Shown here one piece after another: positions 3,001-6,000 of a stretch of 12,736 bases of DNA; positions within the stretch are counted from its first letter, which is position 1; every line of letters begins with the position of its first letter. Origin of the DNA: a virus (taxonomy: Duplodnaviria > Heunggongvirae > Uroviricota > Caudoviricetes); the IMG/VR virus record IMGVR_UViG_2675903606_000010, one strand, 5' to 3'. A program made the position numbers.

Positions 3001-6000
3001 GCGTTGCCGGGGGGGTACGCTGAAGCTGCTGAGTGGCTGGATGTAACAGAGAACGCTTTATTCAACCGCCTTCGTGCAGATGGCGATCAGATTTTCCCGC
3101 TGGGATGGGCAATGATTTTACAGCGCGCGGCTGGCACTCACTACATTGCGGATGCTGTCGCACAGTCTGCTGGTGGGGTGTTTGTATCGCTTCCTGAAAT
3201 TGAGGAAGTAGAGAACGCCGATATAAACCAGCGCCTGCTGGAAGTCATCGAACAGATCGGGAGTTACTCAAAGCAGATTCGTTCGGCAATCGAAGACGGG
3301 GTAGTGGAGCCACACGAGCAGACAGCAATTAATGATGAGTTGTATCTGTCAATTTCGAAGCTCCAGGAGCATGCAGCACTGGTCTACAAAATCTTTTGCG
3401 CTCCAGAAAAGAGTGACGCCCGCGAGTGTGCAGCTCCGGGCGTCGTGGCGTTTTGTGTCTGTGGAGAAACTAACGCATGAACAGTTTAACGGCAAATAAC
3501 CGTTTGTCGCAACAGCTGGTGGTCAGCGTCGCTGAACACCTGTTGTTACGGCATGAATGCAGATTACCAAATCACCTGGCTGTAAGTAACCACAGAGAAC
3601 TTTACCTGACTGTGGGGGGCGAGTTGTGCAGGAACTTAACCGCTGGTTTCGTGACGGAAGAGGGCTTTATGTCCATGTTATTCGTTGGGAGCCAGAAACG
3701 CAGCGCGTTATCTATCTTCGCAAAGACTACCCGCATGAGTGCTTTAGTCCTTTGTGGAAATTCAGGCGTGATTTTGTTGAGTGTGAAGGACCACCAGCAC
3801 ATTGATTCTGCCATTCCGGGACGTTACACTGTTCAGGCACCTTATAAAGCGGGTGTCGGGATTGGCGTCCTGGAATTCAATATAGAGCATAACCGCGCTC
3901 ATGCGGTTTTTTCGTATCATGAGCATTGCTACGTCCAAATTATGGTGGGGCGTGCAGGGGCATCGCAAGATGCGCCGGGTTCTATGTTGACCGGTTACGC
4001 CAACCCTGTACGTCTCACCACCTCTGTGATTGGCGTCCCATGTGGTGAGTTCTTTGAATTCAACATAGGGGCTGTCACCATGACTACTCTCCCAACCCTC
4101 GCTCGTCTGAATGATGAAGACTTACATAAACTCAGTTATGTAACAACTGCACTACGTGCTCTGCGCAAGGTAACTCTTTCGGATCCGCAGGCGCATCAAG
4201 TTCTGGTAGAAACCCTTCTTAACTTGCAGGCTGAACGTATTCGTCTGGCGGATAAGGCTAATTTTCATATTCACCGTCTCCTGAATATCAGCGGAGGGCA
4301 TCGTCATGCTTAATCCGTTGATCCTCAATATTTGCCGTTTGCTTCAGCGTAAAAAAACATCAATTCCTACAGTTGGGCAGTGGTACACCACACCTGCAGG
4401 GCATGTTCTACGTGTTAGCCTGGTTGACCGTGAATGCCAGAAGGTGATTTGTGAACCGCTGGGCCGTAATTACCGCGTCAGTATGCCGCTTATAGCCTTT
4501 CGCTCCGGAAAAAACATGAAGCATCTCGGAGGTGCAGCATGAGTATGGAGCTGATGGTTAAAGCGATGAAAATTCGAGTGGGTAATCCATTGCGAAAACT
4601 GGTTCTGATCAAGCTGGCTGATAATGCCAGCGATCAGGGTGAGTGCTGGCCCAGCTACCAGCATATTGCTGACCAGTGCGAGATTAGCAAACGTTCTGTG
4701 ATGAATCATATTGCGGCCCTTTGTGAGTCCGGGCTGGTAAAAAAAGTCACCCGGAAAGGTGAAAAAGGTAACTCAAGTAATATCTATCTCCTTCATCTGG
4801 ATGGTGCAGGAGATTCACTAGGGGGTAGTGCAAATAATTCACTATCTGGTGCAGCAAATTCACCAGGTAGTGCAGGAGTTGCACCAGGGGGTAGTGCAGG
4901 AGATTCACCCAGAACCAGTCACTCTTTTGAACCAGTCAAAGAACCAGTCAATGAACCAATAGCTGTTGGTGCATCAGTTGATGAGTCCGTGCGAGTTCGT
5001 TCAAACCGGCCGGAATACTCTCCGGAGTTTGAGCAGGCATGGCTGGCATATCCCAAACGTGCTGGTGGTAATTCAAAATCTGCAGCCTTCAAAGCCTGGA
5101 AAGCCCGTTTGAATGAGGGGGTAAACCCCGAAACCATGCTGGAAGGTGTGAAACGCTACGCGGGCTGGGTATCTGCGATGGGTAACAGCGGCACACAATT
5201 TGTGAAACAGGCTGTCACGTTCTTTGGTCCGGATCGTCATTTCGAAGAATCCTGGGAAGTTCCTGCGGTATCTGCAGCCAGACGTGAGGACCCGTACTTC
5301 AAAGCCAGTTACGACAACGTGGACTACAGCCAGATCCCGGCAGGATTCAGGGGGTGATCATGAGTCTTTTGAATGAAGTTCAGAAATTCATTGAAGCCCA
5401 TCCGGGGTGTACTTCCGGAGACATTGCGGATGCTTTTGCAGGTTACTCACGGCAGCGCGTTCTGCAGTCAGCAAGCAAGTTACGTCAGAGTGGGCGTGTG
5501 GCTCACCGTTGTGAAGGAGATACACGCAGACATTTCCCGCGCCTGACTGAGAGAGCGCAGGAACCGGAACCACAACTAGTTCGAGAAACCAGACCTGTGC
5601 GCAATTTCTATGTCGGCACTAACGATCCACGGGTGATTTTGTGCCTGATCCGCCAGGCTGAAGAACTGGAGTCCAGGGGCTTATACCGTCGTGCTGCAAC
5701 CGTGTGGATGGCGGCATTCCGTGAAAGCCACTCCCAGCCAGAACGAAACAATTTTCTGGCGCGTCGTGAGCGGTGCTTACGGAAAAGCAGCAAGCGCGCT
5801 GCATCGGGTGAAGAGTGGTATCTGTCAGGGAATTACGTGGGGGCTTAATGAGTAATAAATATTGCCAGGCGCTGGTGGAACTGCGGAACAAACCAGCCCA
5901 TGAACTGAAGGAAGTGGGCGATCAGTGGCGCACGCCGGACAACATTTTCTGGGGAATTAACACCCTGTTTGGCCCGTTTGTTCTGGATCTGTTTACTGAC

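Follow-up and report, generated by a model that had tools for sequence, protein, structure and literature searches.

In an SfV/e14-like lambdoid prophage, the stretch that runs from ymfL, a CII-like regulator gene, to the replication gene is, in our judgment, likely a P4-type (IsrK-C4) antisense-RNA immunity cassette. The prophage is represented by IMG/VR record IMGVR_UViG_2675903606_000010; the whole stretch of DNA analyzed, hereafter the window, is 12,736 nucleotides (nt) long and was recognized as prophage early region from its gene content and from profile searches. The cassette (3477-4542) lies in the early-right operon. IsrK-C4 cassettes are already known as a kind, and the window holds a further case. 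Within it we found two regulatory RNAs, IsrK and C4, and target sites that co-vary with C4, those downstream overlapping the ribosome-binding site of a small gene, orf77 (the cargo). An open reading frame (ORF) of 278 codons spans both RNAs, ends with orf77 nested in its own frame, and is coupled to its neighbors through overlapping start and stop codons (Table 1).

A preliminary description, made from the sequence alone, had presented this region as an uncharacterized, translationally coupled module of two proteins of 278 and 78 amino acids (aa). ORF calling and reading of the sequence placed both ORFs and their overlapping codons exactly where that description had put them. The TGA stop of ymfL overlaps the ATG of the 278-codon ORF as ATGA; the second ORF, orf78, begins with an ATG at 4306, 8 nt ahead of the point where the TAA stop of the first one (4311-4313) ends (CATGCTTAA, the overlap reading ATGCTTAA); and the end of orf78 overlaps the start of the replication gene (4539), again as ATGA. 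A prophage of E. coli ETEC1721 has the region with 100% identity, and phage SfV, where the ORFs are orf37 and orf38, has it with 93%. Because the same ORF geometry recurs in SfV, in Stx2c phages and in hundreds of E. coli prophages, the arrangement is not a matter of chance; part of the 1.2-kb region was matched in 3035 of 5426 complete genomes. Coupling of translation across these genes is real and probably serves a function. The notion of a non-replicative accessory insert between the CII-like gene and the replication gene stood, whereas that of an uncharacterized two-protein module did not, the main functional elements being the two RNAs and their target sites.

IsrK and C4 RNAs with co-varying target sites

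Searches against Rfam returned IsrK and C4 on the coding strand of the operon, each above its gathering score and each covering the full model (positions 1-77 of RF01394 and 1-87 of RF01695). IsrK ends in an intrinsic terminator, and C4 folds into the family consensus with a minimum free energy of -46 kcal/mol (z -5.1). IsrK and C4 have been described as structural homologues of P4 seqA and CI RNA that some lambdoid prophages carry (PMC3632133, PMC4825925), and we found both RNAs in the same geometry in SfV, mEp460, Stx2a_1447, Salmonella 118970_sal3 and Stx1_499, as well as in P4. Upstream of IsrK lies a putative promoter whose -35 element (3802-3807) overlaps the stop codon of a DUF4222 gene and whose predicted start is near G3837. 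This stretch is near-identical in all six lambdoid types, occupies the position of the P4 promoter that precedes seqA, and has a 21-nt core with exact occurrences in at least 120 viral contigs. By analogy with P4, we infer that this internal promoter drives IsrK.

Two single-stranded elements of C4, A' and B', are complementary to sites on either side: A' to A1 within IsrK and A2 downstream of C4, and B' to B1 and B2 in the same order. B2 abuts the Shine-Dalgarno sequence of the cargo (GGGG, 4068-4071), and the cargo ATG follows at 4080. We assessed co-variation in seven aligned sequences (the window, SfV, an SfV-like variant, mEp460/Stx2a_1447, 118970_sal3, Stx1_499 and P4). At the upstream sites (A1/B1) 99% of cells were paired, with compensatory changes in 12 of 14 pairs; the downstream sites (A2/B2) reached 95.9%, likewise with compensatory changes in 12 of 14. 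For neither set did any of 500 shuffles match the observed pairing, and slid controls paired at 30-51%.

A wider survey, seeded with the exact 21-nt promoter core and hence confined to close relatives, yielded 121 cassettes, of which 92 were parsed and 29 were not. The parsed cassettes fall into nine specificity types and pair at 99.7-100% at all four sites, and the distance from the end of B2 to the cargo ATG is 11 nt in every one of the 92.

Two further observations concern the sites. In SfV (L002), A2, at about 3631-3636, reads UUGCCG in place of UUGGCG, a single mismatch to its own A'; pairing of A2 is perfect in nearly all other cassettes. Some viral contigs carry two tandem IsrK-C4-cargo cassettes about 850 nt apart, with different B'/A' specificities and a cargo each.

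Proposed control of the cassette

The layout is that of the P4 immunity region (PLE-seqA-CI RNA-seqC, with eta and kil). In both, a promoter (putative in the window) is followed by IsrK/seqA, by C4/CI and by targets over the ribosome-binding site of the first small gene; a long ORF in the frame of that gene spans the RNAs and is ATGA-coupled upstream; and the cassette directly precedes replication functions. According to the passages of PMC10111431 that report Forti et al. 1999, P4 transcripts from the internal constitutive promoter terminate via CI/seqA RNA interactions, Kil is translated only on read-through, and full-length eta is translated only from the upstream promoter.

If the window cassette works as its counterparts in P4, P1 and Gifsy-1 do, the internal promoter would make IsrK and then, by read-through and processing, C4. 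C4 would pair with A2 and B2 and block translation of orf77, and this block would bring transcription to a premature end ahead of orf78 and the replication genes. Once the main early promoter is active, ribosomes arriving from ymfL would, as proposed from P4 eta, re-initiate at the ATGA-coupled 278-codon ORF. By translating through IsrK, C4 and the target sites, they would make the early transcript insensitive to the RNA control, and the ORF would thereby serve as a carrier frame.

There are differences from P4 as well. The window belongs to a lambdoid prophage that has a LexA-like CI repressor, and the RNA layer thus comes on top of protein immunity. IsrK and C4 are separated by a spacer of 24 nt (107 nt in P4); a 77-aa helical protein unrelated to Kil serves as cargo; and a DUF4222 gene is embedded in the long ORF, with a DUF4222-like gene after the cargo. 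The immI region of P1/P7 (a1 b1-c4-a2 b2-icd-ant) resembles the window in having a bipartite antisense RNA with two flanking target pairs, a second downstream site about 10 nt before a small first gene (about 73-77 aa), and type-specific loop sequences, which give heteroimmunity. Unlike the window, P1/P7 gave no match to an IsrK-type terminated small RNA in the same form. In P1 the antirepressor comes after the small ORF; in the window a DUF4222-like protein and the replication gene take that place.

Several points weigh against this account. In Gifsy-1 the short IsrK activates cargo translation in trans, and a constitutively expressed C4-like RNA did not prevent the activation (PMC4825925), which makes the sign of regulation in the window prophage uncertain. 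The putative promoter went unreported by the promoter scan because it fits only 8 of 12 consensus positions. The openness of the long ORF could stem in part from conservation of the RNA sequence and not only from selection for translation, and DUF4222 and the carrier ORF, which lie in overlapping frames, would both require translation. Finally, orf77 resembles neither P1 Icd nor P4 Kil in sequence (the latter compared by eye) and has no fold match; it shares with them only its position as first gene after C4 and a size of 65-77 aa.

In an alternative reading, positive control of the Gifsy-1 type dominates: a silent read-through transcript would be opened by the short IsrK acting in trans, which would switch on orf77 and the genes downstream, with C4 as a by-product or modulator. 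The Salmonella locus (isrK-orf45 (STnc1160)-anrP; Hershko-Shalev 2016, PMC4825925) has the same IsrK family, a C4-like processed RNA after it, an ORF across the C4 region and a translationally linked cargo, and sister cassettes of the window carry a Rha-type antirepressor. The IsrK match in the window spans the full model with the same terminator, and a conserved AUG in the 5' stem of C4 (3942) stands roughly as far away as does the first AUG of orf45 in Gifsy-1. There, IsrK supplied in trans increased translation of the cargo by more than 100-fold, an effect that needed translation of orf45 (PMC4825925). However, orf45 is a separate ORF of 45 codons, ATGA-coupled to anrP, whereas its possible equivalent in the window is fused in frame to the cargo and extends to ymfL; the cargo of the window is not an antirepressor, and no AntQ-type readout is known for its cassette; and co-varying A2/B2 sites that abut the cargo ribosome-binding site fit repression by C4, as in the annotation of b2/icd in P1 and in seqC of P4. 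We regard a dominant positive control as possible but rather unlikely, and add that activation by IsrK and repression by C4 are not mutually exclusive.

The 278-codon ORF as a probable carrier frame

As expected of a P4-type module, an ATGA overlap couples the 278-codon ORF to ymfL, and the ORF is open in every type. Its span takes in the DUF4222 gene, the promoter, IsrK, C4 and the target sites, and its last part is the 77-aa cargo, nested in frame. P4 eta matches it point for point: as read from the P4 sequence, eta has 197-199 codons and three adjacent ATGs, overlaps ORF88 as ATGA, continues across seqA, CI and seqC, and has the 65-aa kil nested at its end. On this ground we read the 278-codon ORF as probably a carrier frame, translated only so that ribosomes are carried across the RNAs. 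Between the upstream gene and the cargo ATG, the cargo frame holds no stop over 182-219 codons in all six lambdoid types, as compared to 2-5 and 0-4 stops in the other two frames of the RNA stretch, and the long ORF is open in 92 of the 92 surveyed cassettes. Inside the DUF4222 gene, synonymous resampling predicted about two stops in the long-ORF frame, with a probability of finding none of 0.025-0.13 per lineage; six of six lineages nonetheless lack a stop there, some of them differing at most of their third positions.

The frame concerned is +1 relative to DUF4222; it was examined in the window and in homologues from L004 and L088-L092, and the six stop-free lineages include some that have neither IsrK nor C4. 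Given this and the low resampling probabilities, an ORF that overlaps DUF4222 and is coupled to the CII-like gene seems to be kept even in lineages with no RNA region for ribosomes to traverse.

The preliminary description had recognized no motif in either protein. Contrary to this, the 278-codon ORF matches several PHROGs and the Pfam family Phage_ASH (PF10554; aa 117-207, equivalent to nt 3825-4097; 42.3 bits against a cutoff of 26, E 1e-10), besides holding the two Rfam families and the DUF4222 gene in an alternative frame. The Phage_ASH match coincides with the IsrK-C4 locus. When we compared the window with the commonest SfV-like variant (L006) over 3780-4135, 79 of 356 nt differed, spread over codon positions as 24/27/28; given this even spread, the Ash part shows no selection at the amino-acid level. 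Further upstream, at 3481-3625 (145 nt), changes in the long-ORF frame were synonymous in 7 and non-synonymous in 12 cases, which is no coding signal; this segment aligns to e14 only with indels and is absent from Stx1_499. The 278-codon ORF is thus no protein gene of the conventional kind, its middle showing no protein-level selection and DUF4222 lying inside it in a different frame. If the ORF is a carrier, its 'Ash domain' is a conceptual translation of the RNAs, and the real proteins of the region are three: DUF4222, the 77-aa cargo and orf78.

Known loci show the same pattern. In P4 (L085, NC_001609), the coding sequence (CDS) annotated as 'cI gene product (137 aa)' (8168-8584, minus strand) matches Phage_ASH at E 4e-16 and covers the Rfam C4 match at 8420-8507, the CI RNA itself; the isrK match (seqA) lies just upstream of it at 8615-8692. 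In Gifsy-1, orf45/STnc1160 over the C4-like RNA is conserved in nucleotide but not in amino-acid sequence (PMC4825925). From the Ash match over the RNAs in both the window and P4, together with the orf45 pattern, it follows that the Pfam Ash family largely models translation of an RNA locus. As an aside, RefSeq still carries the obsolete P4 cI CDS, the P4 member of Phage_ASH, as a 'transcriptional repressor'; P4 epsilon matches PF25738 and not PF10554, which at least one survey took as a marker of epsilon.

Within the long ORF, a nested ORF of 123 codons opens at the conserved AUG in the C4 5' stem. It is matched end to end by phrog_4908 (123 aa) and may be the equivalent of Gifsy-1 orf45.

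Could the 278-codon ORF, or its 192-aa version from ATG 3735, nevertheless encode a genuine Ash family/Bro-network transcription regulator, the RNA matches being incidental? The ORF is open in every relative, the Phage_ASH match exceeds the Pfam threshold, PHROGs labels the ORF 'transcriptional regulator', and databases hold hundreds of Ash-type protein entries. Yet the Ash region shows no third-position bias across 3837-4079, its amino acids change wherever the specificity loops of the RNAs change, and the domain falls precisely on IsrK and C4 in the window as it does in P4, in which an RNA provides immunity (PMC4825925, PMC3632133). Moreover, at 3626-3734 the frame under selection is that of DUF4222 and not that of Ash, and the PHROG families begin at differing internal positions (aa 61, 103 and 156), as arbitrary ORF calls would. 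We therefore hold an Ash protein to be very unlikely. The NCBI (PGAP) annotation of the identical prophage calls DUF4222 and the 192-aa 'ash family protein', and does not call the 278-aa ORF.

A DUF4222 gene in another frame, and e14 ymfM

The DUF4222 gene begins with GTG, preceded by a Shine-Dalgarno sequence GGGGGG at 3614-3619, and its 59-aa product matches PF13973 at E 9.5e-14 (51.1 bits, cutoff 27). Among distinct codon changes in about 80 close relatives, counted segment by segment since the middle of the region is mosaic, synonymous and non-synonymous changes numbered 10 and 6 in the DUF4222 frame, as compared to 4 and 16 in the long-ORF frame. Differences from diverged homologues likewise accumulate at the third codon position (positions 1/2/3: 7/5/27 for Stx1_499 and 18/11/34 for e14), and amino-acid identity is 67-96% in the DUF4222 frame versus 31-76% for ORF278/YmfM and 33-78% for the remaining frame. 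Judged from these sequence comparisons, DUF4222 is the frame under purifying selection in 3626-3805.

The e14 and SfII order ymfL-ymfM-replication gene shares with the window the CII-like gene, an ATGA-coupled start (MNSLT...) and the alternative-frame DUF4222. Unlike the window, it has no IsrK, C4, cargo or orf78; DUF4222 there overlaps the start of the replication gene, and the coupled ORF is YmfM, of 112 codons. In e14 of K-12 (L004), the equivalent of window 3477-3805 lies at 4823-5181, where ymfM is annotated ('cell division inhibitor YmfM', 112 aa). A DUF4222 ORF (L004 5002-5181), with a TTG start and an AAGGAG Shine-Dalgarno sequence, overlaps ymfM in another frame, and its stop overlaps the start of the replication gene. 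Identity between e14 and the window is 67% in the DUF4222 frame and 33% in the YmfM frame. Filamentation was assigned to ymfM in a study whose pBAD24 construct held the entire ORF, and the portion of that study's text that was searched mentions no frame-specific control. Given that DUF4222 is the conserved frame and that the whole ORF was cloned, the active e14 product could be DUF4222; the SfiC division inhibitor of e14, attributed to YmfM, may be the protein of the other frame.

The cargo and orf78

The Shine-Dalgarno-ATG junction of orf77 (...GGAGGCUGCCAUCAUGGCUAC...) is common to all types, to P4 kil and to the Rha cargo genes. Codon changes support the orf77 frame (14 synonymous to 10 non-synonymous, versus 8 to 16 and 3 to 20 in the other frames). 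An exhaustive HMMER search with orf77 gave only 10 matches, two of them true divergent homologues (P0166 and P0170; 46-48% identity). Both keep the invariant motifs and have the C4-derived N-terminal extension, beginning with MVGRAG as the nested ORF does. An AlphaFold2 (AF2) model of orf77, with a predicted local distance difference test score (pLDDT) of 83, places helices at residues 12-29 and 36-72 in a predicted helical hairpin, for which the structure search gave no informative fold match (best PDB hit E 0.34, a generic helical hairpin). Homology to P1 Icd was rejected, as BLASTP gave no match at E 10, and so was homology to P4 Kil, which, in a comparison by eye only, looks unrelated beyond the first residues.

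In orf78, a Shine-Dalgarno sequence GGAGGG at 4293-4298 precedes the start, and synonymous to non-synonymous changes number 19 to 17, versus 7 to 29 and 4 to 32 in the other frames. The product matches phrog_1153 (E 3e-42), a narrow, enterobacterial family, and has no Pfam match even at E 10. Reciprocal profile matches between the orf78 and DUF4222 PHROGs were weak (E 0.019, 0.008 and 7e-7), and BLASTP aligned orf78 with e14 DUF4222 at 32% identity over 44 aa. The AF2 model (pLDDT 82) shows an N-terminal helix and a five-stranded small beta-barrel, resembling generic SH3/KOW/Tudor-like barrels in the PDB at E 0.01 at best. These profile links and the model suggest that orf78 may be a distant DUF4222-like small beta-barrel protein; a function based on the KOW resemblance was set aside, the fold being generic and the E-values non-decisive.

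Among the 92 parsed cassettes, orf77 is the cargo in 29, and a Rha-family antirepressor of 177-185 aa occupies the same junction in 61; the same specificity type can come with either cargo. An orf78 homologue lies directly 3' of the cargo in 85 of 88 evaluable cassettes, and DUF4222 lies directly 5' of IsrK in 81 of 88. In relatives that lack IsrK and C4 (e14, SfII, Klebsiella phage 1 LV-2017 and Yersinia YeP2), DUF4222 overlaps the start of the replication gene and there is no orf78. The survey and these relatives identify the travelling unit as IsrK-C4-cargo-orf78, flanked by DUF4222-like genes. The pair of 278-aa and 78-aa genes thus does not travel as such, orf78 accompanying the cassette with the 77-aa cargo or the Rha antirepressor alike.

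In mEp460 and in Stx1 and Stx2 phages, the annotated 340-383-aa 'antirepressor/Rha/Ant' CDSs are the carrier ORF fused in frame to a Rha-family cargo of 181-183 aa, and that cargo starts at the conserved Shine-Dalgarno-ATG after C4. The 'Rha/Ash' architecture reported for the regulatory regions of Stx phages (PMC8951638) probably reflects this over-extension of CDSs.

By analogy with P4 Kil and P1 Icd, the 77-aa cargo is possibly a host-targeting or regulatory protein; a host-targeting role is possible on the same analogy. The toxin-antidote or anti-defense role raised in the preliminary description found no support, as PADLOC models matched none of the 278-aa, 77-aa, 78-aa and DUF4222 products and no toxin, antitoxin or defense family of Pfam or NCBIfam matched the ORFs of the region. 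In line with its remark that neither protein has a Walker NTPase motif, no ORF in 3477-4542 gave a helicase-loader or NTPase signal in Pfam, PHROGs or NCBIfam, and a helicase loader or other replication accessory (lambda P, DnaC-like) was rejected on the same profiles. A toxin-antitoxin, exclusion or anti-defense unit of two proteins, made up of orf77 and orf78 or else of the 278-aa and 78-aa products, is highly improbable: the genes are small and overlapping with strong Shine-Dalgarno sequences, and the first small gene after C4 harms the host in P4 (kil) and P1 (icd), but orf78 is equally present with the Rha cargo, appears related to DUF4222, which elsewhere stands directly before replication genes, and comes without any PADLOC, Pfam or NCBIfam match of such a kind.

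Features of the window and its neighborhood

The positions of the cassette elements and of the flanking genes are collected in Table 1. Two observations lie outside the cassette. Inside the replication gene, at 4824-4958, lie imperfect tandem repeats whose periods are 21-24 nt and 12 nt; they encode a low-complexity 'GGSANNSLSGAANSPGSAG...' linker and may be origin iterons, as in lambda O. A 141-aa ORF at 10083-10508 has a lipoprotein-type signal (MKKVLIAAIGFCLVGCAG) and lies in an AT-rich stretch 3' of an antiterminator-like gene (9008-9802); it resembles a moron, the term for an accessory gene that has been inserted in a prophage.

Table 1. Positions of cassette elements and neighboring genes in the window, with two sets of related loci in other records
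Feature	Position	Strand	Basis or remark
ymfK, LexA-like repressor	1920-2594	minus	
cro-like gene	between ymfK and ymfL		
ymfL, CII-like regulator	2917-3480	+	Pfam Phage_CP76 E 8.5e-15; NCBIfam YmfL E 4.7e-50
Long ORF, 278 codons, ATG start	3477-4313	+	sequence read
DUF4222 small protein, 59 aa, GTG start, different frame from long ORF	3626-3805	+	Pfam PF13973
Putative IsrK promoter	3802-3830	+	-35 TTGATT 3802-3807, 17-nt spacer, -10 TACACT 3825-3830
IsrK / P4 seqA-like small RNA	3837-3913	+	Rfam RF01394, 60.1 bits, gathering score 50, E 8e-12
A1 target site, UUGGCG	3862-3867	+	inside IsrK
B1 target site, CAAUAUAG	3878-3885	+	inside IsrK
Intrinsic terminator of IsrK	hairpin 3891-3908 + U run	+	terminator scan
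C4 / P4 CI-like antisense RNA	3938-4025	+	Rfam RF01695, 80.1 bits, gathering score 45, E 1.5e-15
Nested ORF, 123 codons	3942-4313	+	conserved AUG in C4 5' stem; in-frame fusion to cargo
B', CUAUGUUG	3982-3989	+	loop of C4 hairpin 2
A', CGCCAA	3998-4003	+	single-stranded bulge of C4
Downstream target sites, P4 seqC equivalent	4030-4071	+	complementary to A'/B', co-varying
A2 target site, UUGGCG	4030-4035	+	3' of C4
B2 target site, CAACAUAG	4061-4068	+	3' of C4
orf77, regulated cargo, 77 aa, P4 kil / P1 icd position	4080-4313	+	Shine-Dalgarno-ATG junction, codon tests
orf78, 78 aa, ATG start	4306-4542	+	sequence read
Replication initiator, HTH_36 / DnaD_N, O-like	4539-5357	+	Pfam and PHROG matches; first downstream gene
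PerC, Dam, further genes	3' of replication initiator		
Over-long antirepressor CDSs (other records)	L003 3078-4229; L087 2352-3503; L088 2358-3500; L089 2484-3506		
Tandem cassettes (other records)	L137 ~9081, ~9928; L165 ~7576, ~8442; also L122, L132		

Implications for SfV/e14-like prophages

The main interest of the locus lies in a corrected mis-annotation, in the diversity of specificities, in the swapping of cargo, in the hidden DUF4222 gene and in the question that it raises about e14 ymfM. The cassette sits in a large share of E. coli prophages, Shiga-toxin phages included, where it is usually annotated as 'Ash family protein', as 'transcriptional regulator' or as an 'antirepressor' that is too long. 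If it is taken instead for an RNA switch combined with a carrier ORF, Rha antirepressors in Stx phages acquire corrected start sites, the Pfam Ash family is flagged as a model that largely captures translation of an RNA locus, and RNA-based heteroimmunity groups are predicted. Such a reading also shifts the questions to be asked about prophage replication, induction and hence toxin production. More broadly, we tentatively propose that SfV/e14-like prophages of E. coli, Shigella and Salmonella may have a second, RNA-based and type-specific layer of immunity, inserted between cII and the replication genes and with at least nine reassorting specificities, in which C4 pairing would gate expression of the replication genes unless ribosomes from the CII-like gene translate the carrier ORF across the RNAs; Ash would then not be a protein domain in many annotated phage regulators, the 'Rha/Ash' proteins of Stx phages among them, and the 77-aa cargo might be a new host-targeting protein in the niche of Kil and Icd.

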